Part shown: positions 1,577-50,428 of the stretch, piece by piece
Layout: every line of letters starts with the position of its first letter
Numbering within the stretch: the stretch's first letter is position 1
NCBI GenBank assembly: GCA_963741305.1
Contig: CAVUHL010000003.1
Location: 1,434,260 to 1,498,259, forward strand
DNA length: 64,000 nucleotides
Direction of reading: 5' to 3'
DNA from: an uncultured Holophagales bacterium
Lineage (GTDB): Bacteria > Acidobacteriota > Thermoanaerobaculia > Multivoradales > UBA5704
Notes under the pieces: model-generated
The model's database searches: none
Seen by the model: the letters and a program-made list of their open reading frames with translations, nothing else
Told to the model about the DNA's origin: nothing
Translations under genes and position numbers: made by a program

Positions 1577-2410
1577 CCGAATACGTTCCGCTTCCGAATA
1601 CGTTCCAGGGGAGTGTAGCGGGAATGTAGAAGAGAACCAGGAAAATCAATCCCACACGTAGTCATGCGCGGTCCTGCTGCGTTTTTCTGGCGGCGTTTTG
1701 GGGCGCTCGGCGCGTAGATTCACCCTGAACGTGGACTCCCATACAAGTTTTTCGAGCTCATTCTCGGCACTTGGACGTAACCTCTCCCTTCCTGGAGTCG
1801 TCCAGCCCTCAAAAGCCTTGACCAGAATCGCTCGGTGACGCCGATCACCGCCTGCTGCGGTGCGGTCGCTCACGCACGGACGAATGGCAGGCCCGGCGGA
1901 AAGCAGCCGTTAGGAAATCTCGCCGTGCGATCGCCGGCTTTGAGCCTCTCCGCGGCTTCACGGAAGGCCGCAAGGAAGAGGCCGTAGGCCTTCAGCCCGA
2001 ATACGTTCCAGGGGAGTGTAGAAGGAATGTAGAAGAGAAACCAGGAAATCAATCCCACACGTAGTCATGCGCGGTTCTGCTGCGCCTTTCAGGCGGCGTT
2101 TTGGGGCACTCGGCACGTAGATTCGCCCTGCACGTGGACTCCCATCCAAGTTTTTGGAGCTCTTTCTCAGCATTCGGACGTACCTCTCCCTCCTGGAGTC
2201 GTCCAGCCCTCGAAAACCTTGATGAGTATCGCTCGGCGACGGCGATCACGGCCTGCTGCGGTGCAGTCGCTCACACACGGACGAAGGGCAGACCCGGCGG
2301 AAAGCAGCCGTTGGGGAATCTCGCAGTGCGATCGCCGGCCTTGAGCCTCTCCGCGGCTTCACGGAAGGCCGCAAGGAAGAGGCCGTAGGCCTTTCGAAAG
2401 GCCTCGCGGG
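1577..2410. repeat. tandem direct duplication, two units of about 415 bp, including the 3' end of the transposase gene
   Basis: Sequence ccgaatacgttccaggggagtgtag...gaatgtagaagagaaccagg at 1578 recurs at 1997; ORF pairs 1646-1873/2049-2249 and 1870-2058/2271-2388 encode near-identical peptides (KAYGLFLAAFREAAERLKAGDRTARFPNGCFPPGLPFVR). Confidence 0.85.
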
Positions 2411-3191
2411 CTGCCTTGCTGGCTGCATGGAAGCGCGGAGCGGGTGACTTCTTCGTCTTGTTGGGACAGGTATGCGGGTGTTGGCGCAGGATGGCCGTCG
2501 TGCCGAGTGGCTCACGGCCTGTGCGCTTCCGTTCCGCCGCGGCATCGGCATCGATCTCGTTCACCAGCCCTGCAACCAGCTCCCGGTACACCTCCGGGCT
2601 GAGGTGACGCCAGCAAGGGAGCTGCGAGAGCACGACGGTCTCCTCCGTCGCATAGCGCCGAGGCTCGAAGTCCTCTCCCCGAAGCCGGGCCCGGTATTCT
2701 GCGGTCCGGTTGAACCAGGTGCCGCGAACGGGCTCGCCGCTGAGCACGGACTTCACCAAGCTGATGCCCGGCCAGTCCTCGACTCGGGCCACCAGCCCTT
2801 CCTTGACCCCGTTGGCCAGCACATAGCGCAGGCGGTCGACCTGCGCCGCGGGCTCGTCGCTGATCACGATCGCCTCGTAGCGCCGCGACCAGATCTTGTC
2901 CCGCCACTTCCTCAGACGGGCGACCTCGCGGGCCACGTTGGTCTGGAAGTAGCCCATGAAGTCGGCCATGCGCTCGGCGTCCGGAACCCGGATCAGGAGA
3001 TGGTAGTGGTTCGAGGCGACAAAGAAGGCCGAGATCTCGACCGGGTGGAGCCGCTGAGCCTGGCCGAGGACGCCGAGCAGGATCTCATTCAGCACTGGGT
3101 CGGGCCGGAGAAGGTAACGGCTCTGGATGGTGCGGCAGGTGATGTCGACGAGGGAGCCTTCTTCTGGGATGAAGCGGGGTGGTCTTGACAT
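2271..3191 (-). CDS. IS200/IS605-family Y1 (HUH) transposase, long RAYT-like form
   Basis: 306 aa; HYHLL (HuH) motif, conserved Y-containing C-terminal region; size and architecture of REP-associated tyrosine transposases; low-GC context. Confidence 0.7.
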   Translation of the reverse strand: MSRPPRFIPEEGSLVDITCRTIQSRYLLRPDPVLNEILLGVLGQAQRLHPVEISAFFVASNHYHLLIRVPDAERMADFMGYFQTNVAREVARLRKWRDKIWSRRYEAIVISDEPAAQVDRLRYVLANGVKEGLVARVEDWPGISLVKSVLSGEPVRGTWFNRTAEYRARLRGEDFEPRRYATEETVVLSQLPCWRHLSPEVYRELVAGLVNEIDADAAAERKRTGREPLGTTAILRQHPHTCPNKTKKSPAPRFHAASKAAREAFRKAYGLFLAAFREAAERLKAGDRTARFPNGCFPPGLPFVRV

Positions 3192-3493
3192 GATGCCCGG
3201 GTAGAGACGGAAAACGGGTCCAAAATGTCATTCCTGGAAATTCTTCAGGATACATCTGACCTGATGAAAGATTGGCCGGAGCTTTGACAGCGCTGGTTTT
3301 CCGCCAGCAGGGCCAGGAGTGGACCGCTGTCAAGGTTCCCTAGACCCGGTTGCGCACGGTAGAATCAGCCGGCAGACCGGAGGGCGACCCGATTCCCTCC
3401 CAACGAAGAAAAGCGTAAACTAGACGTTAGGCTGAAGCTGGTCTTGTTTCGGGTGCCCGCTCGTTGTCGCGCCCCCACGGAGATTTTCCCATC

Positions 3494-9534: not shown

Positions 9535-9623
9535 TAGAGGCTATTTTAGCAAAATTCCAGTACGAAGAGCCGGCCTCGCCGTATCCTGCCCCGGCTTGTT
9601 TATAAGTTAAGATAGGGTCAGAA

Positions 9624-12600
9624 ATGACCCGATTTGTGTTGGTTCGTTGGCAGGCTGCGAAGCCGGGCTGGCTGGGGGCTCTTCTGCTCCTCTGCCCGAT
9701 CCTCGCGGCGGCGCTCAATCCGTCGCTCGCGGTCACCCAATACCGCCACGACCACTGGACCCGCCGTGAAGGTCTGCCGCAGATGAGCGTGAACGCCGTG
9801 CTGCAGGACCGCGCCGGCTTCCTCTGGCTCGGCACCCAGGAGGGGCTCGCCCGCTTCGACGGCGTCTCGTTCCGTGCGTTCAAGTTCGAAGACACTCCGG
9901 CGCTCGGCAACAGCTTCGTCGGGGCTCTCTTCGAGGACCGCCGCGGCCGGCTCTGGATCGGCGCGGGCGCGGGAAACATCTCCTGGTTCGACGGGGAGAC
10001 CATCGTCGGGCTCCCGCGCGGCGGCACGCTGCGCGGGGTCGCCTTCGGCTTTGCAGAGGGGTCAGAGGGCGAGCTGTTCGTGGTATTCCGCGGCGCCGGG
10101 CTCCACCGCATCGTGGGAGACCGGCTCGAAGCGGTCGTGGACCGCGACGGACGTCCGCTCGGCCAGATCGGCTCTCTCCTGCAGGGCCGGAACGGCGAGG
10201 TCTGGGCGGGCGGGGAAGGCAGGCTGTTCCGCTATCACCAGGGAGGTTGGACCCGCTACGACTTTCCGGGGTTGCCGGAGAGGCGTGTGACCGCCCTCGC
10301 CGTCCACCCGGATGGCGAGGTCCTGTTCAGCGAGGAGACCCAGACCGTGCGCCGGATGCGTGTGAAGGGCCGCTCCCTCGAGGACTCACTGGAGGAGATA
10401 CAGCCGGGCTGGCAGCTTCCCGCCGCCGTGCGCACGCTCTTCGTCGACCGCGACCGGACGGTCTGGATCGGCACCGAGAGCGGCGTGGCGCGCCGGCGCG
10501 CCGATCCTAAAGGCAGTATGGAGCTCTGGCCCCAAGGGCCGAGATCGACGGCCAACACCTTTTTCGAAGACCGGGAGGGAGGGCTCTGGGTCGGCACGAA
10601 CCTGGAGGGCCTCCAACGGTTGCGGGCGGACGAGGTCGTCCCCCTCGGCGCCAAGGAGGGCCTTCCGGACGACAAGGCCTGGAACGTCATGGCGGCTTCC
10701 GACGGCGCGCTCTGGGTGACCACCGACGGCGGTCTGGCACGGATCGTCGACGGCCGCATCGAGCGCGTCTCGGTGCCGGGGCTGCCGGGTGGGGACGGGG
10801 TCGCCCTGGGCGAGCGGCGCGACGGCTCGGTCTGGGTCGGAACCTACCGCTATGGGTTGTTCCGGCTGCCCCGTGACGATCGCGACGATGAGCCGCTCCT
10901 CCGGTTCACGGCTGATGAAGGGGTGCCGCCCGGGCCGGTCACCGTGGTCTTCGAGGATTCGCGGGGCAGGCTCTGGGTCGGCAGCCGCGAGGGCCTGGCG
11001 GTCGAGACAGGCAGACGATTCCAGGCGGTGCCTCTGGTCAAAGGCGGTACCCAGCCGTACATCTCGGCGATGGTCGAGGATCGGAAAGGGACGCTCTGGA
11101 TCGCCACCAACGTCGGCCTGTTCGCACAAAGTCCCGCGGGCGGGATCCGGCGCTACGGCCACGTCGATGGTTTGGCGAGCACGGCGATCTACGCGTTACT
11201 GCTCGACCGCGACGGCCGGCTCTGGATCGCGACCGGCGGCCAGGGGGTCCAGATCCTCGACGCCGGCCGGTTCCTGACGGTCGACCGCCGCCACGGCCTG
11301 CCCACCGGCTCGGTGACCTGGATGGTGGAGGACGACCGCGGCGGGCTCTGGTTCTCCTCGAACTTGGGCCTTTTCAGTGCCGGCCGGCAGGCTCTGCTGC
11401 GGACCGCGAGGGGGGAGACGAAGAGTGTCGAGTTCCGGCGCTTCGGCCTTGGCGATGGCATGCTCGAGGAGGAGTGCGCCGGCACCGGTCAGCCAGCCGG
11501 AGCGCGGACCCGCGACGGCCGCGTCTGGTTCCCGACCGCGGCCGGGTTGGTCTCCGTCGATCCCTCGCGGCTCACGCAGCCCGTCCCGCCCCCGGCCGTC
11601 TTCAAGGCCCTCGTCGTGGATGGCCGCTCGGCGCCGCTTCACCGGGGCCTGGGGGAGATACCGATCGAGCTCGCGCCTGGCCGCGGCGACATCGAGGTCC
11701 GCTTCACCGCGCTCGGCCTCGACGAGGCCCAGGGTACGCGGTTCCGCTACCGGCTGGACGGCTACGACGACACCTGGATCGAGGCCGGCCAGCGCCGGTC
11801 GGCGTTCTACACCCGCCTCGCCCCCGGCTCTTACGGTTTCGAGGTCCAGGCGCTCCACGACGACGGCGGCGCCTGGAGCGCTCCGGCATTGCTCGCGTTC
11901 CGGTTGCGCCCTCATTTTTTTGAGACGGCCTGGTTCCGCTCGCTCCTCGCGGCCGCCGCCGTTCTGGTGCTGTACGGCGGCATGCGCTGGCGGAGCCGGC
12001 GCCTTGAACGGCGGGCGGACGAGCTGTCGCTGGCCAACCGGAGCCTCGCGGAGGCGGCCGAGCGGCAGACGGCGCTGAGGCAGGAGGCCGAGGGCGCGCG
12101 GCGGCGGGCCGAGCAGGCGCAGCTCGAGGCCGAGCATCACGCGCGCGAGGCGCGCCGCGCCGAGGAGGCAAAGGGCGCGTTCCTGGCCACGATGAGCCAC
12201 GAGCTGCGGACGCCGCTCAACGGCGTTCTGGGCTTCTCCAGCCTGTTGCTCGATTCGACGCTCGATCCGCGCCAGCGCGAGTTCATCGAGATCATCCGGA
12301 CCAGCGGCCAGACCCTGCTGTCGCTCGTCAACCAGGTCCTCGACCTCTCGCAGAGCGACCGGGGCAAGCTCACGCTCGCGGCCGAGCCGTTCTGGGTGCC
12401 CGACTGTTTCGAGGAAGCCGTGGAGCTGGTGGCGCCCGCCGCCGCCGAAAGGGGGCTCGACCTCGCGCTCGCGATCGATACGGACGCCTGCCGCTTCGCG
12501 GTCGGCGACCGGACCCGCGTGCGCGAGATCGCCACCAACCTGCTCGCCAATGCGGTCAAGTTCACCGAGTCGGGCGGGGTCCTGGCCAAGGTCTCCGCGC

Positions 12601-13568
12601 GCATCGAGGAGAGCCGTCTCGCCGTCATCCTGGAGGTCTCCGATACCGGCATCGGCATCGCTGCCGAGAACCTCTCGCGGATCTTCCAGCCGTTCGAGCA
12701 GGTGGATGCGAGGCTCGCGCGGCGTTACGGCGGCGCCGGGCTCGGCCTGGCGATCGCCAGCCGGCTCTGCTCGTGGATGCAGGGGACGCTGACCGTGGAC
12801 AGCGAGCCGGGCAAGGGCTCGACCTTCACGGCCACGGTCCGGCTCGACCTCGACTCTGCGGCCGACGCACCTGTGGGCATCCGTCTGGACGGCCGGGCCG
12901 TCCTGCTCGCCGGCCTTTCCTGCCAGACCCTGGAGGCGCTCGAGCGGCAGCTCCGATCCTGGGGCGCCGTGGTTTCGCCGTCCTCTGGGGAAGCGGACTT
13001 TGGCATCACTGCCGCGGAGCATGGGAATGAGATCCCCTGGATACGGCTGGTGCCGCAGGACGCGCCGCCCGTCTCCTCGGAAACCGTCCTGCGCCGCCCC
13101 CTCCGGCCGAGCCGCCTCGCGGCCGCGGTCCTTGACGTTCTCGCACCGGCCCCGGAGGCCGTGCCTGCCGGCTCGCCCGCGATGTCTACCTCCATCCTTC
13201 CCTCCATCCTGATCGTGGAGGACGATCCGGTGAGCCGGCAGTTGGTGCATGCATGCCTCGTCGGCCTCGGCTGCATCCCCGACGCCGTCGAAAGCGGCGA
13301 GGCTGCGCTGGAGGCCCTCGAAACCAAGCGGTACGACCTCCTCCTGCTCGACATCCAGATGCCGGGAATGGACGGCTACGAGGTGGCGCGCCGGGTGCGG
13401 GCCCGGTTCGGGAGCCATCCCTGGATGGTCGCCCTCACCGCGGCGACCAGGGAAGGGGACCGCGAGCGCTGCCTCGCGGCGGGGATGGACGACTACCTGA
13501 GCAAACCCATGCGCTTCGAAGAGCTCGCCGCGGTGGTGGCGGAGCGCAGCGAGTGGGCAGCGCATTGA
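9624..13568 (+). CDS. hybrid sensor histidine kinase/response regulator with periplasmic two-component-regulator-propeller (Reg_prop) and Y_Y_Y domains
   Basis: Signal/TM N-terminus; repeated W..G..GL..FDG motifs; TM helix about aa 770; coiled coil; HisKA ([15 protein letters not shown]), HATPase_c, C-terminal REC ([13 protein letters not shown]...[14 protein letters not shown]). Confidence 0.85.
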
Positions 13569-16500
13569 AGTTTATCAAGCCAGGCTGGCTGTGGATTCTT
13601 CTGCTCCTCTGCCCGGTCCTGGCGGCGGCGCTCGATCCGTCGCGCGCGATCACCCAGTACCGCGCCGACCGGTGGACCCGCCGCGAAGGCCTGCCCCAGA
13701 TGAGCGTGCTCTGTGGGCTGCAGGACCGCGCCGGCTATCTCTGGCTCGGCCTGCAGGAAGGCCTCGCCCGTTTCGACGGCATCTCGTTCCGCACGTTCAA
13801 GGTCGAGGACACTCCGGCGCTCGCCAGCAATTATGTCTCGGCGCTGTTCGAGGACCGCCGCGGCCGGATCTGGGTCGGCAGCGACACGGGAGACCTCTCT
13901 TACTTCGATGGCGAGGCGCTCGTCGCACTGCCGCGCAGCAAAGTGCTGCGCGGGCTCGTCGTCGGTTTCGCGGAGAGCCCCGGCGGCGACCTCTTCGTCG
14001 CATTTCGCGGCGCCGGGCTCCAGCGCCTCGCAGGAGACCGGCTCGAACCGGTTGCGGACCGCGGCGGAGGCCAGATCGACAACCTCAGCTCTCTGGCGCA
14101 GGGCCGGGACGGCGAGGTCTGGGCCGGTGGGGAAGGCGAGCTCTTCCGTTTTCTCCGCGGCGGTTGGACCCGATTCGACCTGCCCGGGACGTCGGGACGG
14201 CCGGTGACGGCCCTCGCCGTCCATCCGGACGGCGAGCTCCTGTTCAGCGAGGACGGCCAGACGGTGCGCCGTGTACGCCTGAAGGGCCTCTCCCTGGAGC
14301 CGGTGCAGCCGGACTGGCAGTTGCCCGCTCGCGTGCTCGCACTCTTCCTCGACCGCGAACGGACGCTCTGGATCGGCACCGGGAGCGGCGTGGCGCGCCT
14401 GCGCGCAGAGGCAGGCATCGCCGGCATCGAGCCCTGGAGCGCCGGACCGCGCTCGGCGGTCGCCGGCTTTTTCCAGGACCGCGAGGGCGGGCTCTGGATC
14501 GGCACGAACCTGGAAGGGCTCCTGCGGCTGCGGGCGGACGAGGTCGTCCCCTTCGGGACCGCGGAAGGCCTGCCGGACGACAAGACCTGGAATGTCATGG
14601 CGGCCTCCGGCGGCGGGCTCTGGGTGACGACCGAGAGCGGCCTCGCGCGGATCGCCGGCGGCCGCGTCGAGCGCATCTCGGTGCCGGGGCTGCCGGGCGG
14701 GGACGGGGTCGCCCTGGGCGAGCGGCGGGACGGCTCTATCTGGGTCGGGACCTACAGTTACGGGCTGTTCCGCCTGCCCCGCCACGATCGCGACGATGAG
14801 CCGCTCCGCCGGTTTACGGCCGCCGAAGGGCTGGCGGCCGGGCCGATCGCCGTGGTGTTCGAGGATTCACGGGGCAGGCTCTGGGTCGGCAGCCGCGACG
14901 GCCTGGCCCGCGAAAGTGAAACGCATTTCCAGGGTGTCCCCCTGGTCGAAGGAGACGTTCAGCCGTACATCGGGTCGATCATCGAAGACCGGGAGGGGAC
15001 GGTCTGGATTGCCACCAGCGCCGGCCTGTTCGCGCAGGGCTCAAGAGGTAAATGGCGCCGCTACGGCGACAGCGACGGCCTGGCGAGCGCGTCGCTCAAC
15101 GCTCTCCTGCTCGACCGGGATGGACGGCTCTGGATCGCCACCAACGGCCAGGGGCTCCAGGTGCTCGACGGCGGCCGCTTCCTCACGGTTGACCGCCGCC
15201 ATGGACTGCCGACGGGCACGCTGTCCTGGATCGTGGAGGACGACCGCGGCGGGCTCTGGATCTCCTCGAACCTGGGCCTTTTCCGTGCAGACCGGAGGGC
15301 GTTGCTGCGGGCCGCGAAGGGCGTCGCGCAGCGCGTCGAGCTGCGGCGCTTCGGCATCGGAGACGGCATGGGCGAGGGGGAGGCTGCCGGCACCGGGCAG
15401 CCTTCCGGAACGCGGACCCGCGACGGGCGCGTCTGGTTCGCGACCGGCTCCGGCCTGGTCTCGGTCGATCCCGCACGGCTCGTGCGGCCCATCCCGCCCA
15501 AATCCGCCCTCGAGACGGTCGTCGTGGACGGCCGCTCCTCGCCGCTCACCCGGAAGACGCCGCTCGTTTTCGCGCCCGGCCGCGGCAACGTCGAGATCCG
15601 GTTCACCGCGCTCGGCCTCGACGAAGCCGCGGGCACGCGCTTCCGCTATCGGCTGGACGGTTACGACAAGGCCTGGATCGAGGCCGGCCAACGCCGGTCG
15701 GCCTTCTACACCCGTCTCGCCCCTGGCTCATACCGTTTCGAGGTCCAGGCCCTCCACGACGACGGCGGGGCCTGGAGCTCGCCGGCAACGGCCGTGTTCC
15801 GGCTGCGCGCCGATTTCTACGAGACGGCCTGGTTCCGCTCGCTCCTCGCGGCCGCCGCCCTTCTGGCGCTGTACGCTGGCGTCCGCAGGCGGAGCCGGAG
15901 CCTCGAACGGCGGGCGGCCGAGCTGTCGCTGGCCAACCGGAGCCTCGCAGAGGCAGCGCAACGGCAGGCGTCCCTTCGGGAAGAGGCCGAGGGCGCGCGC
16001 CGGCGGGCGGAGCAGGCGCAGCTCCAGGCCGAGCAGGCGCAGATCCAGGCGGAGCAGGCGCAGCTCCAGGCCGAGCACCACGCTCGCGAGGCGCGCCGCG
16101 CCGCGGAGGCCAAGGGAGCGTTCCTGGCCACCATGAGCCACGAGCTGCGTACGCCGCTCAACGGCGTTCTGGGCTTCTCCAGCCTCCTGCTCGATTCATC
16201 GCTCGATCCGCGCCAGCGCGAGTTCATCGGAATCATCCGGAGCAGCGGCGAGACCCTGCTGTCGCTCGTCAACCAGGTCCTCGACCTCTCGCAGAGCGAC
16301 CGGGGCAAGCTCACGCTCGCGGCCGAGCCGTTCTGGGTGCCCGACTGTTTCGAGGAAGCCGTCGAGCTGGTGGCTCCCGTGGCCGCCGAAAAGGGCCTCG
16401 ACCTCGCGCTCGCGATCGACACCGAGGCCTGCCGCCTCGCGGTCGGAGACCGGACCCGAATGCGCGAGATCGCCACCAACCTGCTCGCCAACGCCGTCAA

Positions 16501-17521
16501 GTTCACCGAGTCGGGGGGCGTCCTCGCCAAGGTTGGCGCACGCATCGAGGAGAGCCGCCTCACCGTCGTCCTTGAGGTCTGCGACACCGGCATCGGCATT
16601 GCTGCCGAGAACCTCTCACGGATCTTCCAGCCGTTCGAGCAGGTGGACGCGAGGCTTGCGAGGCGTTACGGCGGCGCCGGGCTCGGTCTGGCGATCGCCA
16701 GCCGGCTCTGCTCGTGGATGCAGGGGACGCTGAGCGTGGAGAGCGAGCCGGGAAAGGGCTCGACCTTCACGGCCACGGTCCGGCTCGACCTCGACTCTGA
16801 GGGCGACGCACCCACGGGCATCCGTCTGGACGGCCGGCTCGTCCTGCTCGCCGGCCTTTCCGGCCAGACCCTGGAGGCGGTCGAGCAGCAGCTTCGATCG
16901 TGGGGAGCCGTGGTTTCGTCGTCCTCCGGGCCTTCAGGGGAGGCCGACCAGGACTTCACGTTCGGAATCGTTGCGGATGCCGTGGAGCACGGAGGCGCGA
17001 TCCCGTGGATACGGCTCGTATCCCAGGACGCGACCCCTGCCTCAGCGGAGCCCGTCCTGCTCCGTCCGGTCCGGCCGAGCCGGCTTGCGGCCGCGGTCCT
17101 GCGCGTACTCGCGCCCGTCACCGAGGCCGCCGGCTCGCCCGCGGGATCCACCTCCATCCTTCCCTCCATCCTGATCGTGGAGGACGACCCGGTGAGCCGT
17201 CAGCTGCTGCGCGCATGCCTGGTCGGCCTCGGCTACACCCCCGATACCGCCGAAAGCGGCGAGGCGGCGCTCGAGGCCCTCGAAGCCCGGCGCTACGACC
17301 TCCTCCTGCTCGACATCCAGATGCCGGGAATGGACGGCTACGAGCTGGCGCGCCGGGTGCGGGCCCGGTTCGGGAGCCGTCCCCGGATGGTCGCCCTCAC
17401 CGCGGCGACCATGGAAGGGGACCGCGAACGCTGTCTCGCGGCGGGGATGGATGCCTACCTGAGCAAGCCCATGCGCTTCGAAGAGCTCGCCGCGGTGGTG
17501 GCGGAGCGCACTCTCCGATGA
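13565..17521 (+). CDS. hybrid sensor histidine kinase/response regulator, tandem paralogue of preceding gene
   Basis: Same architecture, about 75-80% identical protein; probable TTG start at 13565 overlapping stop of upstream gene (ATTGA); contains expanded QAEQAQ coiled-coil repeat. Confidence 0.85.
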
Positions 17522-20062: not shown

Positions 20063-22446
20063 CCCACTATGACCATAAGGCCGTCGAGGCCAAATGGCAG
20101 GACCGGTGGGAGAAGCAGCGGACCGCCGAGGTAGACCTCCGCCAGGCGCGGCAGAAGTACTACATGCTCATGATGTTCCCCTACCCCTCGGGGGACCGCC
20201 TCCACGTCGGGCACGGGCGCAACTACATCCTCGGCGACGCCCTTTACCGCTACCTGCGCATGAACGGCAAGCGGGCCTTCAACCCGATGGGCTGGGACGC
20301 CTTTGGCCTGCCCGCCGAGAACGCCGCCATCCAGCGCGGAGTCCATCCCAAGGACTGGACCTTCGGCAACATCAAGGTCATGAAGGAGCAGTTCAAGCGC
20401 TGGGGGATCCTCTTCGACTGGAGCAAGGAGCTCGCCTCCTGCACCCCCGAGTACTACCGCTGGAACCAGTGGCTCTTCCTGCGCATGCTGGAGAAGGGGC
20501 TGGCCTACAAGAAGAAGGCCCCGGTCAACTGGTGCCCGAGCTGCCAGACCGTGCTCGCCAACGAGCAGGTGGTCGAGGGCGCCTGCGAGCGCTGCGGCAC
20601 CCCGGTCGTCCAGCGCGACCTGGAGCAGTGGTTCTTCCGCATCACCGGGCACGCCGACCGCCTGATCGCCGGGCTCGACGGCCTCGAGGGCTGGCCCGAG
20701 AAGGTCAAGGTGATGCAGCGCAACTGGATCGGCCGCTCCGAGGGCGCCGAGATCGACTTTGCCGTCCAAGGCCTCAAGAAGAAGATCACCGTCTTCACCA
20801 CCCGGCCGGACACGCTCCACGGCGCCACCTTCCTGGTCCTCGCACCCGAGCACCCGCTGGTCCCGAAGCTGATCGAGAAGCACCCCGGCCTGCCGGAGCT
20901 GGAGGAGTGGATCGAGATGACCCGCAATACCCCCCGCATTCAGCGGGAAGGGGAGGGGACTCCGAAGGAGGGCAGGGACACCGGGCGCAAGGCGATCAAC
21001 CCCGCGACCGGCGAGCCGATCCCGATCTGGATCGCCAACTACGTCCTGCCCGACTACGGGACCGGCGCGGTCATGGGCGTGCCTGCCCACGACGACCGGG
21101 ACCTGGCCTTCGCCCAGCAGGAGGGGCTCGCCATCCGCCAACTCGACGAGCTGGAGTCCTCGCCCGAGGCGGTGGGGAAGTTCATCCAGTGGATCGAGGA
21201 GAAGGGCTTCGGCCGGGCCAAGGTGACCTACCGGCTGCGCGACTGGCTGATCTCCCGCCAGCGCTACTGGGGGACGCCGATCCCGGTGGTCTACTGCGAG
21301 AAGTGCGGCGTGGTGCCGGTTCCCGACGACCAGCTTCCGGTCGAGCTGCCCTATGACGTGGAGCTGACCGGCCGCGAGGGCAACCCGCTCGCCCGCCACA
21401 AGGGATTCGTCGAGACCGCCTGCCCGAAGTGCAAGAAGCCGGCGCGGCGGGAGACGGACACGATGGACACCTTCGTGGACAGCTCCTGGTACTACCTGCG
21501 CTTCCTCTCGGCCAAGGACCCCAACCGCATCTTCGATCCCGAGCTGGCGGAGAAGTGGGCGCCGGTGGACCAGTACATCGGCGGCATCGAGCACGCCATC
21601 CTCCACCTGCTTTACGCCCGCTTCATCTGCCGGGTGCTCCACGACATGGGTTTGGTCGGCTTCGAGGAGCCGTTCAAGAACCTCTTCAACCAGGGGATGA
21701 TCACCCGCCTCTCGGAGAAGTCCGGGCGGATCGAGAAGATGTCCAAGTCGCGGGGGAACACGGTCTCGCCGGACGAGCTGATCGAGGAGATGGGCGCGGA
21801 CACGGAGCGCGTCTATACCCTGTTCCTCGGCCCGCCGGAAAAGGAAGCCGAGTGGAGCGACGACGCGGTCGCGGGTGCCTGGCGCTTCCTCCTGCGTGTC
21901 TGGCGGATCGCGGAGAAGATCCCCGGCGCGCCGCCGATCGGGCCCTCCGACGCCGAGCTGGAGCGCGAGCGCCACGCCACGATCCAGCGGGTGACGCACA
22001 GCTTCGAGCGCTTCTCGTTCAACACCGCGGTGGCGGCGCTGATGGAGCTGTCCAACTCCCTGGCCCGGGCGCTGGACGACCTGACCGCGACGCGCCTGCA
22101 GTGCGAGAGGACCTATGAGACCCTGCTCCAGCTCCTGCACCCCATGGCTCCGCACATGACCGAGGAGCTCTGGGAGCGGATGAATCACGTCGAGGGGCTC
22201 CTCGATACGTCCTGGCCGGAGTACGATGAAGCGAAGCTCCGCCGCGCGCGCATCGAGCTCGTGGTGCAGGTGGACGGCAAGCTCCGCGACCGGGTCGAAG
22301 TCGATGCCGGCGCGGGGGACCGCGAGGTGAGGGAGGCCGCCCTGGCGAGCGCCAAGGTGCGGGAGCATCTGGCCGGCCGCGAGCTGGCCAAGGCCGTGGT
22401 GGTCCCCGGCCGGTTGATCAACCTGGTGACCCGGAGGTCCGCATGA
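20059..22446 (+). CDS. leuS: leucine--tRNA ligase
   Basis: 795 aa; HIGH motif ([16 protein letters not shown]), KMSKS (KMSKSRGN), CP1 editing domain; ATGA overlap with nusB. Confidence 0.95.
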
Positions 22447-22964
22447 ACCCCAAGCGCTCGGCCGCCCTCGGCCTTCTACTTTTAACTCTTACCGGCTGCG
22501 GCTACGCCCTGGTGGGGCGGGCTAGCAGCAACGTCCCGGAGGACGTCCGCGAGGTCTACATCCGCCCGCTGGTGAACCAGACCCAGCGCACACAGGTGGA
22601 GCAGGCCCTGACCCGCGCCATCGCGGACGAGATGGTGACGCGCAACCGCTTCTCGGTAGTGGGAACTGCCGAAGGGGCGGACGCCGAGCTCTCCGGCACG
22701 GTGGTTGGCTTCGACGTCCGTCCGGTGACCTTCGATGCCTCCGGCCGCGCCACGCAGTACGAGATCGTGGTCCTGGCCCAGATCGCCTTCAAGCGCGTGG
22801 GCTCCGACGATGTGATCTGGAGCAACGACCGCTACGTCTTCCGCGAGAGCTACGAGGTCGAGGCCACCGAGACCGCCTACTTCGACCGTGAGGACACTGC
22901 CATCGAGGAAGCCGCGGAGAAGTTCGCGGAGACGATGGTGAGCGATCTGCTGGAGGGGTTCTAG
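22443..22964 (+). CDS. lptE: LPS-assembly lipoprotein LptE
   Basis: 173 aa lipoprotein (lipobox LTGC) directly after leuS with ATGA overlap, the conserved leuS-lptE arrangement. Confidence 0.7.
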
Positions 22965-22972
22965 GGAGAGCC

Positions 22973-23150
22973 CCCCGCAGGGGGCGGCATGTAATAGCCC
23001 GGCACGTGAGTGCCGGGTTTGGGAGATCCAACGCAGTCCAGCCCCGTAGGGGCGGCATACCCGGCATGCCGCCCCTACGGGGCTGGACTCTGTTCCTGCG
23101 CAACGACCCGGCGCTCACGCGCCGGGCTATTTCATGTCGCCCCTGCGGGG
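22973..23150. repeat. compound nested palindrome containing a GTAGGGGCGGC REP-type element; probable bidirectional terminator region between convergent lptE and rpsT
   Basis: Outer 30-bp inverted repeat ccccgcagggggcggcatgtaatagcccggc / gccgggctatttcatgtcgcccctgcgggg; inner hairpins cccggcacgtgagtgccggg, cccggcgctcacgcgccggg; central perfect palindrome ccagccccgtaggggcggcatacccggcatgccgcccctacggggctgg. Confidence 0.8.
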
Positions 23151-23161
23151 CTTAAGACGGC

Positions 23162-23434
23162 TTACGCCGCCTGCTTCATCTCGGCGACGCGCTTGGCGAG
23201 GCGGGCCTTGTAGCGCGAGGCGGCGTTCCGGTGGATGATCTTCTTCTGGGCAATCTTGTCGATCACGCTGAAGGTCGTGGGCAGCAGGGCCTCTGCCGCC
23301 GAAGCGTCGCCACTGGACACGGCGATGCGGAGGTTCTTGATCGCGGTGCGGAGGCGCGAGCGGTGAGCCCGGTTGCGTGCCCGTTGCTGCAGGTTCTGAC
23401 GGTGCCGCTTCTCGGCAGACTTCGTGTTCGCCAT
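23162..23434 (-). CDS. rpsT: 30S ribosomal protein S20
   Basis: 90 aa, MANTKSAEKRHRQNLQQRARNRAHRSRLRTAIKN... is canonical S20. Confidence 0.9.
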   Translation of the reverse strand: MANTKSAEKRHRQNLQQRARNRAHRSRLRTAIKNLRIAVSSGDASAAEALLPTTFSVIDKIAQKKIIHRNAASRYKARLAKRVAEMKQAA

Positions 23435-29594: not shown

Positions 29595-29718
29595 CGCCCC
29601 ATTCTCCTTTTCAGCCGCGCCCCGACACCGGGCCGTCCCGGGTATCTTATTGGATTTGTTGGATGAGTGCAGGTGGGCGGTGTCCTGCTAGACTATGCGG
29701 CATAGGAGCTCCGCCATC

Positions 29719-30141
29719 ATGGTGACCCGAAAAGTCGAGCTGACCGAAGAACAGAACGAGACGCTCGAGCAGATCGCTGCCTCTCAGGGCCGGTCCGTCG
29801 CGGACCTGATCCGGACCGGCGTGGACGTGCTGCTCAAGGACGTGACCAGGAGCGGCTCCGGGCGGGCACGAAGCCTTTCCCAGAGAGAGTCCGAGCTCCT
29901 GCTCGGCATCAACCGGGGTCTGCCCGGCGACCAGGAGGAGAGATACCGGGAGCTCATGACCCGGCGCCGGACCGGCAGCCTGGCTGCCGAGGAACACCAG
30001 GAGCTTCTACGGCTGACTGACGAAGCGGAGCGGTTGCAGGCCGAGCGCATCGAACGTCTTGCCGAGCTTGCGCGCCTCCGGGCCAAGCCGCTCGTCGCCT
30101 TGATGGAGGAGTTGGGGGTCCAACCCTCTCCGAATGCCTGA
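29719..30141 (+). CDS. ribbon-helix-helix-like small protein (possible antitoxin/transcription regulator)
   Basis: N-terminus VELTEEQNETLEQIAASQGRSVADLIRTGV fits RHH beta-strand/helix pattern; coiled C-terminus; no partner toxin adjacent. Confidence 0.4.
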   Translation: MVTRKVELTEEQNETLEQIAASQGRSVADLIRTGVDVLLKDVTRSGSGRARSLSQRESELLLGINRGLPGDQEERYRELMTRRRTGSLAAEEHQELLRLTDEAERLQAERIERLAELARLRAKPLVALMEELGVQPSPNA

Positions 30142-30301
30142 GGGCCGCCCCGGGAGCGAGCAGAGGGAGGCGGTCCGGCTGAACCGGCCCGGGCTCGTCA
30201 ACCTCCGTCGGGCTCTTGTCCGATGCGGCGAGCACCCGCCCCGGGAGCTTGCCGCCCCGGGCTAGTACCTCGTCAGAGTCCGAGTGACGGATAGCGTTCA
30301 T

Positions 30302-30359
30302 GTAGGGGCGGCCCTTGTGGCCGCCCTCCGGAAGGGCACCCACAAGGGGCGCCCCTACA
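30302..30359. repeat. REP-type palindrome (GTAGGGGCGGC family)
   Basis: gtaggggcggcccttgtggccgccc ... ccacaaggggcgcccctac, near-perfect inverted repeat beginning with GTAG. Confidence 0.7.
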
Positions 30360-33406: not shown

Positions 33407-33542
33407 TTTTTCCTGGGACCGCCGGCATCCTGCCGGCATTGTCCGGAGGAATCAGCCGGAACGGCCGACAATGCAAGAAGGACGGGCCTTCGGCCCGATG
33501 TCTCAAGAATGCCGGCAGGATGCCGGCGGTCCCAGGAAAAAA
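33407..33542. repeat. hairpin element: 34-bp perfect inverted repeat flanking a conserved AAGAAGGNCGGGCCTTCGGCCCNATGT core
   Basis: tttttcctgggaccgccggcatcctgccggcatt ... aatgccggcaggatgccggcggtcccaggaaaaaa; second family member at 58057-58160. Confidence 0.8.
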
Positions 33543-39529: not shown

Positions 39530-40125
39530 GGTGGACCCTATCGGTGATGCGACCAGGAGCTGCGCGCGCGAGACAAACCCATCGCCGTCGCGGCAATCCC
39601 CATTCTGCCGCGACTTTGCCTTAAGTCGCGTCAGAAAGACCCATGGTGCCGCGACTTCAGCCAAAGTCGCGTCACCACAGCCTATCGGTGCCGCGACGAA
39701 ACCTGGAGTCGCGTCAGCAAAAGGATTCGTGACGCGACTATACCCTTCGTCGCGTCACTGTAATTCATCGTCGCGTCACCAAAGCCTATAGTCGCGTCAC
39801 GAAGCTTATGGTCGCGTCAGAAAAGCCTTGAGTCGCGTCATCAATGCTTATGGTCGCGTCGGCAAAGTCTTGAGTCGCGGCAGGAAAACCCGTAGTCGCG
39901 TCGCGAAGCTTATCGCTGACGCGACGATGGGTTGGGTCGCGGCAAAAAAGTCCAGAGTCGCGTCGGCAAAGGCCGGAGTCGCGTCAAAATGCCTTTCGGC
40001 GGGACGCCGAAGCTCTTGCGGCAGACGGCGAAGCCTTGGGTCGCGGCAGAAATGGCCCGGGTCGCATCACGAGAGCTTCGCGCAAGGCGGCGAAGCGTTG
40101 AGTCGCGACAGAAAAGCTCGTTGGC
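39530..40125. repeat. tandem array of about 27 copies of a 21-bp unit with conserved core AGTCGCGTCA (consensus GTCGCGTCANNAAAGCNTTNN)
   Basis: gtcgcgtcaccaaagcctata gtcgcgtcacgaagcttatg gtcgcgtcagaaaagccttga gtcgcgtcatcaatgcttatg gtcgcgtcggcaaagtcttga ...; constant 21-bp period, variable 3' half. Confidence 0.85.
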
Positions 40126-41821: not shown

Positions 41822-41830
41822 CCGCGGAGC

Positions 41831-43654: not shown

Positions 43655-43682
43655 ACGGATGCTGAATTTATAAGCAATTCTC

Positions 43683-45604: not shown

Positions 45605-45624
45605 CTGCTAAAGTCTCCCCATCG

Positions 45625-46440
45625 ATGAGAAAGATCGTCCTGATCGCTCTCGGGATTTTGGCCGCCTTCCTATTACTCCTGAACATGCTCGACGGTTTCG
45701 TTCGTCAATCCATCTATCCGGCCCCTCGGGTGAGGGTGCCTCCGGCTCCGGCGCCGCTGGAAGAGGTGGTCTTCGACCTCGCCACGGGTGAGCGGATCGT
45801 GGCCTGGGCCCACTCCGATCCGGCGCTGCCGCCCGGCCGGCCGGCGGTGGTTTTCTTCCATGGCAACGGGGAGAACCTGGAGACGATGAGGATGTCCGGG
45901 ACCTTCGACGAGCTCGCCCGGCTGCGGGTCGCCTGGATCGCCGTGGATTACCCGGGCTACGGCCGTTCCACCGGAGACCCATCCGAACAGGGGGTGATGG
46001 CGGGAGCTGACGCCGCGGTCGCTTGGCTGAGGGAGCGTCACCCCAGCCGGCCGCTGGTCCTCTGCGGCTGGTCGCTCGGCGCGGCAACGGCCATCGGCAC
46101 GGCGGCGCGGCATCCGGAGGAGCACATCCGCGGACTGATCGCCCTGAGCCCGTGGACCTCGCTGCCCGACGTGGCCCGCATCCACTTCCCCGGCATCATG
46201 GTCAAGTCGATCCTGAAGGAGAAGTACGACTCCCGGGCCGCGGCGAAGAAGGTCCGGGTGCCCTCTCTGGTGATCCACGGCGAGCTGGACAACCTGATCC
46301 CGGCGGAGCAGGGCAAGGAGGTCGCCGCCGCTCTCTCGGCGCGGTGGGTGCCTGTCCCCTCGGCCGGGCACAACGATCTGCTGGCCAAGGACGAGGTGTG
46401 GATGGAGATGGAGCGGTTTTTGGATGGGTTGGTGAAGTAG
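45625..46440 (+). CDS. alpha/beta-fold hydrolase
   Basis: N-terminal TM/signal, GWSLG nucleophile elbow, HG oxyanion motif (VVFFHGNGEN), C-terminal D/H. Confidence 0.7.
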   Translation: MRKIVLIALGILAAFLLLLNMLDGFVRQSIYPAPRVRVPPAPAPLEEVVFDLATGERIVAWAHSDPALPPGRPAVVFFHGNGENLETMRMSGTFDELARLRVAWIAVDYPGYGRSTGDPSEQGVMAGADAAVAWLRERHPSRPLVLCGWSLGAATAIGTAARHPEEHIRGLIALSPWTSLPDVARIHFPGIMVKSILKEKYDSRAAAKKVRVPSLVIHGELDNLIPAEQGKEVAAALSARWVPVPSAGHNDLLAKDEVWMEMERFLDGLVK

Positions 46441-46653
46441 CCCTCACCCCCGACCCCTCTCCCGGCCGCACACCCGGACCCCCGGGAGAGGGGAGGCCTC
46501 GAGATCCACCGGCGTCGCCATCCGTGGCTTGTAGCAGGGGATAACCTGGTTCACCAGCCACGTATGGCCACGTATGGCGATGACGCTGGATCTTGCGCGC
46601 CCCCCTCTCCCGGGGGTCCGGGTGTGCGGCTGGGAGAGGGGCTGGGGGTGAGG
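46441..46653. mobile_element. MITE-like element copy A (about 210 bp, 53-bp terminal inverted repeats)
   Basis: Left arm ccctcacccccgacccctctcccggccgcacacccggacccccgggagaggggag, right arm cccctctcccgggggtccgggtgtgcggctgggagaggggctgggggtgaggg; internal about 100 bp bounded by gagatccac / ggatct. Confidence 0.75.
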
Positions 46654-46656
46654 GTT

Positions 46657-47373: not shown

Positions 47374-48680
47374 GAACCTCCGAAGCGCACGCCGAGCTTC
47401 TTGAGGAAGTCGAACGGGGGGACGCCGCCGGCGAAGACGAAGACCCAGTCGTTGGGGAGCTCGACCTCCTGCTCCTTGACCTTGAGCTTGACGCGGCCGG
47501 GGCCGATCTCGACCGGCTGCGAGCCGAAGAGCGGCTTGACCTTGCCGGCGGCGAGGAGCGCGTCAAGGGCGTCCTGGTTCTTCTTCTTGAGCCGCACGAG
47601 CTTGTCCCGGCGATAGGAGAGGGTCACCACGTTTCCTGTCTGGCAGCTCAGGCCGATGGCGGCTTCCGCGGCGCTGTCCCCGCCTCCCACCACCAGGATT
47701 TTCTGTCCCCGGTACCCCTCGGCATCGATGAGACGATACATCACCTTCGACAGCTCCTCTCCGGGCACTCCGAGCTTGCGCGGCGTGCCGCGGCGGCCCA
47801 GGGCGAGCACGACCGCCCGCGTCCGGACTTCCTCCCCGCGCGCCGTGCGCAGGGTAAATATACCGTCCTCCTCTCTTTGCACTTCCCTCCGGATGTCAAT
47901 AACCGCCTCGCCGAAGCGCACATCCAGAGTGTGGTCGCGGACCAGCCCTTCGAAGAGATCGAGGAGGACTTCCTTGCTGTACTCCTCCCGGTCCAGCGCT
48001 CCCCAGGGCGGAAGCTCGACCTTTTGAGTGAGGACCATCTTGCGCCGCGGGTAATGGAGGAGGCTCCCGCCGAGAGTCTCCTCGCGCTCGAAGACGGCGT
48101 AGGAGAGGCCGGAGGTCGCGGCGGTGAGGCCGGCGCTCAGCCCGGCTGGTCCGGCTCCGACGATCGCGACATCCAGGATGCCGGGCGTCTTCTCGGTCCG
48201 TGGCAGATGCTCGATAACCCGGCGTCCCTGGAAAGCCGCGTTGCGGACGAGGGAGAGGCCGCCTAGCTCGCCTACGATGTAGATACCGGAGACGGTGGTC
48301 TGGTAATGATCGTCGAGGAGGGGAACGTCCTCCCTCGATTTGAGGTCGCCGAGGCCGACCTGGATGGCGCCGACCGGGCAGGCTTCTTCGCAGCGGCCAT
48401 GCCCCACACAGCGCAGGCCATTGACCACCACCGCCGTGCCCCCTACGACTCCGAGCACATCCCCCTCAGGGCAGGCTTTGACGCAGGCTCCGCAGCCGAT
48501 GCAGCGGCTCGGATCGATGTAGGGGAACTGGGCCGCGGGCTTGTCGATGCCCAGGGCCGCGGCTTCCTCCTTGCGCTCGCGGTCCAGCTTCACCCGCCGA
48601 CGGAAACGGAGCAGGTAGGGGAGGACGATCAGGCCCGCGATCAGGAGGGCCGCGCCCCAGACGAGGACCGGCTCCGTCAA
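47370..48680 (-). CDS. membrane-anchored FAD/NAD(P)-binding oxidoreductase with 4Fe-4S dicluster ferredoxin domain
   Basis: Probable TTG start overlapping upstream stop; N-terminal TM; two CxxCxxCxxxCP motifs (CIGCGACVKACPEG, CVGHGRCEEACPVG); GxGxxG dinucleotide motifs (VAIVGAGPAG, ILVVGGGDSAAE). Confidence 0.7.
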   Translation of the reverse strand: MTEPVLVWGAALLIAGLIVLPYLLRFRRRVKLDRERKEEAAALGIDKPAAQFPYIDPSRCIGCGACVKACPEGDVLGVVGGTAVVVNGLRCVGHGRCEEACPVGAIQVGLGDLKSREDVPLLDDHYQTTVSGIYIVGELGGLSLVRNAAFQGRRVIEHLPRTEKTPGILDVAIVGAGPAGLSAGLTAATSGLSYAVFEREETLGGSLLHYPRRKMVLTQKVELPPWGALDREEYSKEVLLDLFEGLVRDHTLDVRFGEAVIDIRREVQREEDGIFTLRTARGEEVRTRAVVLALGRRGTPRKLGVPGEELSKVMYRLIDAEGYRGQKILVVGGGDSAAEAAIGLSCQTGNVVTLSYRRDKLVRLKKKNQDALDALLAAGKVKPLFGSQPVEIGPGRVKLKVKEQEVELPNDWVFVFAGGVPPFDFLKKLGVRFGGS

Positions 48681-50428
48681 AATCGGTATCCCAGCCCCAG
48701 GGTCATGCGCTGCCCTTCGATCTCGTCTCCGGTGAGGACTTCCAGCTCGGCCTGGCCGAAGAGGTCCAACGGTAGCTCCAGCCAGAGCGAGGCGCGGGCC
48801 CATTGGGTGGTGGTCTCCTCGTCGACGAGCAGCGACTGCCGCGACAGGGTACCGCCCAGGCCGAGGCTCAGTTCGTGCCCGCCGCCGAAACGCCGGCCGA
48901 CCCGAGTGGTGACGAGCAGGCCGTCGGTGGTCGGATTGGTGAAGCCAAGCACGTCGGCGCCCACGAACAGCTTCAAGCCGGACAGCTCCGGGTGCCAGGC
49001 GCCCACGCCGAGGGAGAAGCTCGTCTCGGAGTCGGCGCCCTCGATCCCCTCATCGCGGGCATCCAGGGCATGCGCGCCCGCGGTCACGGAGAAGTTGAGC
49101 CCCCGCGCCGGACCGGTCTGATAGCTGACCCGCAGCCCCTGCCGCGTCAGGTCGTCGAACAGCTCCGTGGGGATGAAGCGGCTCTCCTCGGTGAGGAAGC
49201 GCTCGAAACGGTCGTAGGAGATCACCAGGCGGCTGCGCTCCGAAAGGCGACCCAGGGCGGTGAGCGAGAGTTGGGAGAGCTGCGAGGTGCTGCCGGCGGC
49301 CTCCTCCCTCCAGCCGGTGTTGAGGTCCAGCTCGGCGTGCTGAAAGAAGGTCCAGCGCTGGCCGGGGTCGTAACGGGTCTCGATGGCCACGAACTCGCGG
49401 CTGATGTCGGTCTCTCCCTCTTCGCGGACTCCGGCCACGAAAAGCTCGAGTCCGTTCGACTCCGGGGCGATGCGGACGAAGGCGCCGTACTTGGATCCGG
49501 AGCCGTCGAAGCCCAGCTCCTCGATGTTGGGCCGGCGGCCGTAGAAGCCGCCCACCTCGAGCGGTCCGAGGACGCGCACCTTGCCGAGGCCGCCATCCAG
49601 GTAGCCGATGCCCACGAACGGGCCAGCGCCGAGGCGGCCGACCCGGAAGCCATAGCGGGCGTCCTCCGGCTCATAGATCAAGGACAGCTCGTAGAGCCGG
49701 TCGCGGCTCGTGGATTCGGGAATGCCGCCGATACTGCTCACGAGCCGACGCTCGCGCTCCTCGTCGAGGCTGCGCATCCGGAGCCGGAGTTGGAGCGGAG
49801 TACCGACGATGTCCCGCACCCGCACGTTGAGCCGTGCGGCCGTGCGGTTGAAGTCGCGGCGGCTCTCGGTGCCATCCGAAAAGACCTCGCTCTCCAGGGA
49901 GACCGCGCCGGTCACGCGGGTCCGGGTTGGACGCGGGCTTTCCGTTCGCGGGATGGGCTTCTCGGTCCGAGGAGCTTCCGCCGGCGGGGGAGCAGGAACG
50001 GGAGCGGGAGCCGCCTCGCCGATCCGCCGCACGCGGTCATCCGCCTGGATTGCCTTGCGTTCGTTCAGGACGCGGCAGGAAGCCGAGTGCTCCGCCGTGA
50101 AGAGAACCTCGATCTCCGCGATGACTTCACTCCCGCGGACGACCTCCAGCCGGTCTCCCACCTCGATCCCCGAAGCCCGGCCATTGTTCAGATAAATCGT
50201 ATCCGCGGACCTGTAGCGCACCGCGAGGGGGTTCTGAGCCATCAACGGCACGGCAATCAGCAGGAAAATGTAGGGGCGGGTCTTGTGCCCGCCCGGGAGG
50301 GGGAAGATCCCGCTCCAAGATCCTGCCGAATTTCGTTCCCGGACGTTTCCCCCACCCGGGCGGGCACAAGACCCGCCCCTACAGACGAGGGCCACGAGAT
50401 GGACGAGATAAAAGAAGTGCCTTTTCAT
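48677..50428 (-). CDS. outer-membrane beta-barrel (porin-like) protein
   Basis: 583 aa, alternating amphipathic beta-strand pattern, C-terminal ...LGLGYRF (terminal Phe); N-terminal region reads through a REP palindrome so true start may lie near 50270. Confidence 0.55.
   Translation of the reverse strand: MKRHFFYLVHLVALVCRGGSCARPGGGNVRERNSAGSWSGIFPLPGGHKTRPYIFLLIAVPLMAQNPLAVRYRSADTIYLNNGRASGIEVGDRLEVVRGSEVIAEIEVLFTAEHSASCRVLNERKAIQADDRVRRIGEAAPAPVPAPPPAEAPRTEKPIPRTESPRPTRTRVTGAVSLESEVFSDGTESRRDFNRTAARLNVRVRDIVGTPLQLRLRMRSLDEERERRLVSSIGGIPESTSRDRLYELSLIYEPEDARYGFRVGRLGAGPFVGIGYLDGGLGKVRVLGPLEVGGFYGRRPNIEELGFDGSGSKYGAFVRIAPESNGLELFVAGVREEGETDISREFVAIETRYDPGQRWTFFQHAELDLNTGWREEAAGSTSQLSQLSLTALGRLSERSRLVISYDRFERFLTEESRFIPTELFDDLTRQGLRVSYQTGPARGLNFSVTAGAHALDARDEGIEGADSETSFSLGVGAWHPELSGLKLFVGADVLGFTNPTTDGLLVTTRVGRRFGGGHELSLGLGGTLSRQSLLVDEETTTQWARASLWLELPLDLFGQAELEVLTGDEIEGQRMTLGLGYRF
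50269..50390. repeat. REP-type palindrome (GTAGGGGCGGG ... CCCGCCCCTAC) with about 65-bp loop, inside 5' end of the beta-barrel ORF
   Basis: gtaggggcgggtcttgtgcccgcccgg ... ccgggcgggcacaagacccgcccctac; arms closely resemble the REP at 30302. Confidence 0.7.

Follow-up and report, generated by a model that had tools for sequence, protein, structure and literature searches.

Two GTAG-tagged REPINs, an Acido-Lenti-1 palindrome and a RAYT-like transposase gene that is probably not the REPINs' partner in an uncultured Holophagales bacterium

Palindromes tagged with GTAG and a gene resembling those of REP-associated tyrosine transposases (RAYTs; REP, repetitive extragenic palindrome) occur together in a 64,000-nt stretch of DNA from an uncultured Holophagales bacterium (Acidobacteriota, Thermoanaerobaculia; assembly GCA_963741305.1, contig CAVUHL010000003.1, positions 1,434,260 to 1,498,259), hereafter called the window. 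The original prediction had assigned palindromes at three sites to a single REP family and taken the RAYT-like gene (2271-3191, minus strand), which lies 20-47 kb from them, for the cognate transposase. We find instead that the window holds three unrelated things that have a 10-mer or a superfamily name in common. Sites 2 and 3 (30301-30359 and 50269-50383) are canonical REPINs, that is, inverted REP pairs forming a larger hairpin, and belong to a known, widespread family. Site 1 (22969-23152) is a composite palindrome built from copies of the Acido-Lenti-1 motif and not a REP of that family. The RAYT-like gene encodes a 306-aa HUH/Y1 protein which, judging from sequence comparisons, is probably not the enzyme moving the REPINs. 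We consider it likely that the REPINs are of the type associated with RAYTs of TnpAY1 subclass 2.4, that the 306-aa enzyme is separate from them, and that site 1 is Acido-Lenti-1. The REP assignment was right for two of the three sites and the RAYT assignment right at the superfamily level, while the partnership between them was very probably wrong.

The 10-mer GTAGGGGCGG occurs in five exact copies in the window, at 23046 (+), 23069 (-), 30302 (+), 50270 (+) and 50373 (-). The expected number is 0.19 +/- 0.44, none of 100 dinucleotide shuffles gave five copies, and the excess is about 26-fold; with one mismatch allowed, 17 copies were observed for 8.3 expected. Folding revealed a strong palindrome at each site: -88 kcal/mol (z = -15) over about 22969-23152 at site 1, -31.8 kcal/mol (z = -7.7) over 30301-30359 at site 2 and -54 kcal/mol (z = -10.6) over 50269-50383 at site 3. 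Hence the three sites do share an enriched motif and are all palindromic, but they are not one family. The 11-mer CCCGCCCCTAC, thought to be their common terminus, is exact at site 3 only, the corresponding sequences being GCCGCCCCTAC at site 1 and GGCGCCCCTAC at site 2. A whole REP unit, TGTAGGGGCGG[CG][CT]CTTGTG[GC]CCGCCC, is common to sites 2 and 3, whereas site 1 has just the 10-11-mer in common with them. The intervals originally assigned to sites 2 and 3 were correct; the one given for site 1, 23036-23088, is merely the core of a larger palindrome.

REPIN A (30301-30359) consists of two inverted REPs, at 30302-30326 (+; GTAGGGGCGGCCCTTGTGGCCGCCC) and 30334-30358 (-; GTAGGGGCGCCCCTTGTGGGTGCCC), with a 5-nt spacer between them. 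It is extragenic, lying 160 bp 3' of the open reading frame (ORF) at 29695-30141 (+) and 5' of an EamA transporter gene. REPIN B (50269-50383) contains two inverted copies of TGTAGGGGCGGGTCTTGTGCCCGCCCGGGAGGGGGAA, with REP units at 50270-50294 (+) and 50358-50382 (-), arms that are 97% complementary and a spacer of 41 nt. In every arm of both elements an initial TGTAG leads into an 8-bp GC stem capped by a CTTGT loop. The reading of the palindromes as GTAG-tagged REPs thus holds for sites 2 and 3, where GT[AG]G stands at the 5' foot of a hairpin and the REPs form inverted doublets; it fails at site 1, where GTAG falls in the loop of a hairpin. GTAG hairpins of a recognisable family were found in the window only at these three sites.

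Scanning metagenome sequences with the pattern GTAGGGGCGGNNCTTGTGNNCGCCC identified REPs in at least 120 contigs, with GC contents ranging from 27 to 73%. Of the 83 pairs of adjacent REPs in these loci, 50 are convergent doublets of 28-105 nt, more than in any other arrangement. Full-length alignments of REPIN A with REPINs of more than 20 unrelated contigs gave 84-92% identity, and the right-hand REP stem of such elements shows compensatory changes between contigs; no flanking sequence is common to the window and the matching contigs. These data bear on the possibility that the palindromes are non-mobile, locally evolved structural signals, for example bidirectional terminators, that resemble REPs by chance in a GC-rich genome. 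Their locations would suit such signals, since site 1 separates two convergent genes and sites 2 and 3 are intergenic or at the start of a gene. So would the outcome of a generic scan of the window for GT[AG]G followed by a hairpin, which gave 37 matches against 15-32 in Markov-shuffled sequence, barely over background, and therefore indicates no additional population of GTAG REPs in the window. However, local evolution does not account for the 26-fold excess of the 10-mer, for full-length matches and compensatory stem changes in unrelated contigs, or for the insertion polymorphism described below, and none of the three sites has a run of T residues after its stems. As an explanation of the palindromes it appears extremely unlikely, and it is contradicted for sites 2 and 3. 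A signal of this kind is a possible function for the palindrome at site 1.

Site 1 is located between the convergent genes lptE (22443-22964, +) and rpsT (23162-23434, -). The covariance model of Acido-Lenti-1 (RF01687; gathering score 37) matched there twice over its full length, with 61.7 bits at 23107-23152 (+) and 49.0 bits at 22969-23017 (-), so the outer arms of the palindrome match the complete 46-nt, two-hairpin model. The inner part, 23030-23094, is made of two inverted partial copies of the 3' hairpin of the motif. Two full and two partial copies in this way form a single palindrome of ~180 nt. With the four copies aligned, the inner palindrome follows the 3' half of the motif as (C/T)ATGCCG-CCCC-TAC-GGGG-CT. 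It follows from this alignment that GTAGGGGCGG at site 1 is the reverse complement of CCG-CCCC-UAC, comprising linker, stem and loop; it does not have the order of a REP, in which the stem comes after the foot, and in the CCCC/GGGG hairpin its GTA forms the loop. The function of Acido-Lenti-1 is given as unknown in the source paper (PMC2864571). The layout of site 1 suggests a bidirectional terminator or a repeat at the DNA level rather than a free-standing small RNA, and Acido-Lenti-1 itself may be a DNA-level palindromic repeat instead of a small RNA.

A peculiarity of REPIN B is its location inside a gene. The gene, at 48677-50428 (-), encodes a protein resembling outer membrane proteins, and the REPIN comes shortly after its start codon, which is 2 nt from the end of the upstream cytochrome c gene. 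The element is in frame within the signal-peptide region, which reads MKRHFFYLVHLVALV, then 38 aa from the REPIN, then IFLLIAVPLMAQNP. The 583-aa product is on record with the same gene call (P0241, 100% identical), and two loci (L203 and L204) are 100% identical to the window; no exact match is on record for the product of the RAYT-like ORF or for the cytochrome protein. Orthologues of the 583-aa protein differ at this position. One with 87% identity (P0242) has the same 115-nt REPIN as the window; another with 79% identity (P0249) has a 53-nt REPIN a few codons off the window position; in the remainder (P0243-P0248 and P0250-P0252, 80-91% identity) the signal peptide is a plain one, such as MKIRLFLLLFVLAGPLLAQNP, and a REP insert is absent from all of them. 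The reading frame is kept in all versions, with or without the REPIN. As read from the aligned genes, these alternative states (115 nt, 53 nt, none) are direct evidence of past REP activity in the lineage. The proposal of an active or recently active REP/RAYT system is borne out to the extent that REPs have moved in this lineage; its tie to the transposase of the window is not.

A hidden Markov model (HMM) derived from short RAYTs was run on the 120 REP-bearing contigs (743 kb), on 82 loci of the 306-aa family (1.3 Mb) and on the window. Five genes were found, in four REP-bearing contigs (two in L120 and the others in L146, L177 and L183). Neither the window nor any of the 82 loci of the 306-aa family yielded a subclass-2.4 RAYT by HMM; in the window, tblastn and the HMM matched only peptides encoded by REPs. 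At all five short RAYT genes REPs adjoin the gene or sit within it. The first RAYT of contig L120 has REPs on both flanks and an in-frame REPIN inside the gene, and its REPs, GTAGGGGCACCCCTTGTGGGTGCCC and GTAGGGGCGGCCCTTGTGGCCGCCC, correspond to the two variants of REPIN A (24/25 and 25/25 bases, respectively). This metagenome contig (positions 1-4324) carries, in 4.3 kb, two tandem REPtrons, the arrangement in which a RAYT is flanked by REPs; it has one REP family per RAYT, GTAGGGGCACCCC... and GTAGGGCCGGGGC..., and REP inserts in frame in both genes.

The short RAYTs, of 180-250 aa, have the motifs NH[IV]H, WQRN(Y/F)YEH..R and Y..NP, and score 70-74 bits on the NCBIfam model REP_Tyr_transpos despite their inserts. 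Peptides encoded by REP feet (VGA, APT, RPY, PPL) occur between the HUH and WQ motifs in 109 of 116 subclass-2.4 homologues; outside this segment the count is 30. VGA and APT occur together in 42 of the 116, denoting a whole REPIN in frame. Insertion of REPs within the RAYT gene is the hallmark of subclass 2.4 (PMC6006769), and the in-frame REPs of the 109 homologues match it. The REPs of this subclass are canonical, long and have three G-C pairs at the foot (PMC6006769). REPINs A and B likewise have a 5' GTAG foot on a long hairpin with three basal G-C pairs, and they share with subclass-2.4 REPtrons (PMC6006769, PMC3733652) the inverted doublets and the in-frame location of REPs inside genes. 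Unlike these systems, the window is without a RAYT of that class, and the host belongs to Thermoanaerobaculia (Acidobacteriota), a group not highlighted for subclass 2.4. Altogether, the sequence data point to a short RAYT of TnpAY1 subclass 2.4 (Bertels group 4) as the partner class of the REPINs, the link to REPs being the REPtron arrangement.

The REPINs would accordingly be non-autonomous elements. TnpAREP of E. coli binds the REP hairpin as single-stranded DNA, and its HUH/Tyr centre cuts and rejoins. By analogy, REPINs A and B would be bound as single-stranded hairpins by their RAYT, whose WQ..EH..R region would read the GTAG foot and whose HUH/Tyr centre would cut and rejoin close to the REP. 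A subclass-2.4 RAYT would presumably mobilise them in trans; its presence in the genome is presumed as well. With no such gene in the window, the RAYT would lie elsewhere in the 8.38-Mb genome, or it has been lost.

In the latter case the REPINs would be orphans, inherited relics of the subclass-2.4 class that were possibly kept for termination or mRNA stability, or as a tolerated peptide insert. Several features are consistent with this: an A/C mismatch interrupts the stem in the right arm of REPIN A, the window contains just two REPINs in 64 kb in addition to lacking a subclass-2.4 RAYT, and loss of REPtrons is documented in E. coli strains (PMC3733652). Moreover, the 115-nt REPIN is common to the window and the P0242 lineage, where the host protein is 87% identical, so its insertion must be old. 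On the other hand, the arms of REPIN B are still 97% complementary, and the different REPIN states of one gene in different lineages argue for repeated activity and not for one ancient event. In addition, the sequence examined makes up about 1% of the genome. We regard orphan REPINs as rather unlikely and favour the reading in which a subclass-2.4 RAYT serves them.

The gene at 2271-3191 (-) was examined for the properties of a RAYT. Its product has the HUH motif N61-H62-Y63-H64 and the catalytic tyrosine Y123, in RLRYVLANGVKEG, and passes the Pfam model Y1_Tnp (31.1 bits; cut-off 23 bits). E. coli TnpAREP (4ER8) is the closest solved structure both by sequence and by predicted fold (AlphaFold2 model); the N-terminal ~150 aa have the same fold (Foldseek E 9.5e-7; TM 0.68, target-normalised). 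The family shows no variation at H62, H64 or Y123, the last of which aligns with the catalytic Y115 of 4ER8. As in TnpAREP, which is of subclass 2.2, the tyrosine is on the equivalent helix and there is a ...GxV...DWP tail. The HUH and catalytic tyrosine arrangement, the lack of which had been named as grounds for abandoning the RAYT assignment, is therefore present, in a TnpAREP-like fold.

The protein differs from TnpAREP in several other respects. It has 306 aa against 165 aa, the C-terminal part being an extra conserved domain of ~150 aa that ends in FPxGxFPPxLPFV; a fold search with this domain gave no convincing match in the PDB outside the N-terminal Y1 fold. On the NCBIfam model REP_Tyr_transpos (NF047646) the protein scores 66.3 bits, under the 80-bit cut-off. 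Its tyrosine motif is Y-V-L-A-N-G, i.e. Y---NG, and instead of the Y---NP signature all 23 aligned family members have Y-V/I-L-A/S-N/Q/H-G/C. The residues of TnpAREP that contact GTAG are W94, Q95, E100, H101 and R104 in the E. coli numbering (PMC6006769). HMM and MAFFT alignments place R or S, A, I and S at the equivalents of the last four, so that the 306-aa protein keeps the Trp only and is without four of the five contacts. Subclass-2.4 RAYTs, in contrast, keep all of them (WQ..EH..R). Neither does the protein qualify as a TnpA of the IS200/IS605 type: it scores 16.8 bits on NF033573 (cut-off 55), and where subclass 1.1 has ~150 aa, Y---Q and near-identical copies, it has 306 aa, no Y---Q and diverged paralogues, those in one genome being 75 to 95% identical to the window protein.

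Scanning one genome per species yielded 571 relatives of the 306-aa protein, nearly all from Thermoanaerobaculia, Holophagales and other Acidobacteriota. Copies per genome number at least 5 in SMAG_U13441, at least 8 in SMAG_U12414 and at least 4 each in OY969112 and OY970373, with paralogues within single genomes being about 56 to 95% identical to the window protein; RAYTs, by contrast, are typified by a low copy number, one or a few per genome. Synteny with the window holds for the closest orthologue (L001), and the next-closest ones are found in other contexts. Homology between paralogues is sharply bounded, starting ~60 bp 5' of the ATG and ending ~275 bp 3' of the stop codon, which defines a unit of ~1.26 kb. 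In the window, the left end of the unit spans 3192-3252 (-), where ~60 bp are conserved from the onset of homology, TGAAGAATTTCCAGGAATGACATTTTGGACCCGTTTTCCGTCTCTAC...ATG, and the right end spans 1997-2270 (-), where ~275 bp are conserved, ending ...TTCTTCTACACTCCCCTGGAACGTAT. TTCCAGG is found at both ends in inverted orientation, the exact repeat being 7 bp only, and GTAG-containing strings are found at both ends too. The consensus of the region after the stop codon folds into weak hairpins (-8.6 kcal/mol), with compensatory changes in 3 of 20 pairs.

REPs do not accompany this unit. The motif GTAGGGGCG was found within 900 bp of the gene at none of 83 loci (the window and the 82 homologous ones). 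Distances to the nearest REP range from 969 bp to 9.5 kb, and at the 11 closest loci no REP was found within 10 kb. The gene in the window is not flanked by REPs and thus does not form a REPtron. Surveys have likewise found no REP association for TnpAY1 subclasses with large C-terminal domains (PMC6006769). We therefore think it very unlikely that the 306-aa protein is the cognate transposase mobilising the GTAGGGGCGG palindromes. That proposal does have the HUH and catalytic tyrosine in its favour, with E. coli TnpAREP as best match in structure and sequence, as well as the JGI label for homologues of the protein (RayT), the GTAG strings at both ends of the unit and the presence of REPs of the REPIN class in some genomes with the family (L024, L064, L065 and L074). 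But a REPtron is lacking at every locus, four of the five GTAG contacts are missing, Y---NG stands in place of Y---NP, and the gene is multicopy with conserved ends of its own. Furthermore, the contigs with these REPs span 27-73% GC, a spread that reaches well outside the named acidobacterial hosts of the family, and the REPs are physically tied to a different RAYT class, subclass 2.4. A cognate RAYT in cis, as originally proposed, is very probably not what the window contains.

The 306-aa enzyme most likely acts on the ends of its own unit, in the manner of an insertion sequence or of a TIRtron, and not on GTAG REPs. Resemblances to subclass 2.3 and to TIRtrons/TIRYTs, RAYT-like genes that have long C-terminal domains or, in place of REPs, inverted repeats at their flanks, include the long protein, NHYH, several diverged copies per genome and no REPs nearby; the ends of the unit also combine the inverted TTCCAGG with GGGGAGTG (7/8) and GGAATGAC (6/8), which resemble the TIRtron motif GGGGWSAS. 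The 55-aa insertion found in subclass 2.3 between beta3 and alphaC is absent from the window protein. Identity with the Acidobacteria TIRYT group of Di Nocera was considered and rejected, as members of that group keep WQ and NP and have ~200 aa. We tentatively propose, without giving it even odds, that the protein represents a TnpAY1 subclass outside the 2010-2018 surveys. Such a subclass would be characterized by NHYH, W-S-R-R-Y, Y---NG and a new C-terminal domain ending in FPPxLPFV, and would form an autonomous ~1.26-kb unit with its own ends, present in 5-8 or more diverged copies per genome in Thermoanaerobaculia/Holophagales and undergoing repeated partial duplication of the right end.

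A 401-bp tandem duplication of this kind (1594-1992/1997-2393) is present in the window: the final ~120 bp of the gene and the right end are repeated at 1594-1992 (-), with 89-92% identity to 1997-2393. Other family copies have extra right-end or 3'-gene fragments as well (L001, 12819-13218; L003, 11194-11361; L008, 6535-6569; L011, 8138-8517), and no extra left ends were found. Solo copies of the unit's ends, which would point to derivatives resembling miniature inverted-repeat transposable elements (MITEs), do not form a dispersed family: the left end is found only beside genes, and extra right ends are few. Acido-Lenti-1 was also dismissed as a repeat partner of the enzyme, as the 8 closest loci gave no match in 130 kb of surrounding sequence and a pattern search gave none in 2 Mb of loci. 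Acido-Lenti-1 has been reported near group II introns in Lentisphaerae (Weinberg et al., PMC2864571); in L008, the RF00029 model matches such an intron domain at 9543-9621 (63.9 bits), ~380 bp 5' of a 306-aa gene copy of SMAG_U13441.

The preferred reading, with subclass-2.4-type REPINs and a separate 306-aa enzyme, draws on the anatomy of the elements, their patterns of co-occurrence, the residue differences and the insertion polymorphism, all of which are observed here. Some points weigh against it. Subclass-2.4 RAYTs were found in 4 of 120 REP contigs compared with 0 of 83 loci of the 306-aa family, a difference that is not significant alone; what carries the argument is how REPs and RAYT are physically arranged in the REPtron. 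No named Acidobacteriota are among the best 120 subclass-2.4 homologues, few of which carry names. The contact residues were compared in remote alignments (E about 3e-4 to 4ER8), and the 306-aa enzyme may also bind REP hairpins. Finally, the window covers only 64 kb of an 8.38-Mb genome.

The window is rich in other repeats. An element of ~210 bp, also palindromic, is present in three copies (46439-46654, 53843-54054 and 55434-55640), with CCCTCACCCCCGRCCCCTCTCCC termini and arms that are 78-86% complementary; with no GTAG foot, it makes up a family of its own that resembles MITEs or REPINs. A dense array of mini-hairpins of ~21-22 bp (57770-58040), composed of GGGGCGR...YCGCCCC units and A/T-rich tetranucleotide spacers, lies 3' of the gene at 55678-57759. 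In an intergenic region of lower GC content (39606-40048), at least nine copies of TGACGCGAC(T) in both orientations make up an array with a 21-bp period. At 33407-33541 an inverted repeat of 34 nt (TTTTTCCTGGGACCGCCGGCATCCTGCCGGCATT) has perfectly matching arms separated by 67 nt, and a related, GCCGGC-rich inverted repeat is found at 58045-58173. Two adjacent paralogous genes for proteins of ~1300-1400 aa (9624-13568 and 13253-17521) are 82-92% identical in DNA; their orthologue in L001 has the Pfam domains Reg_prop/Y_Y_Y, HisKA, HATPase_c and Response_reg, those of a hybrid sensor kinase. The ORF at 60181-63765 includes nine tandem repeats of 138 bp (46 aa) at 62265-63539.

In conclusion, the finding is made up of known kinds of elements, and the observations made alongside it, namely the 306-aa family, the REPIN within a signal peptide and the Acido-Lenti-1 palindrome, are the more interesting. 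REPIN B is a clear case from nature of a signal peptide that tolerates an in-frame REPIN, with orthologues that have it and orthologues that do not. The results caution against pairing any gene annotated as Y1 or "RayT" with a nearby GTAG palindrome: REP-RAYT partnerships are specific to subclasses, and the REPtron arrangement, the GTAG-contact residues and co-occurrence are what to judge them by. In Acidobacteriota the automated label RayT covers an abundant, undescribed family of Y1 transposases. If the proposal made here for the 306-aa family is true, its lifestyle would be a third one, lying between those of IS200 elements and of domesticated RAYTs.

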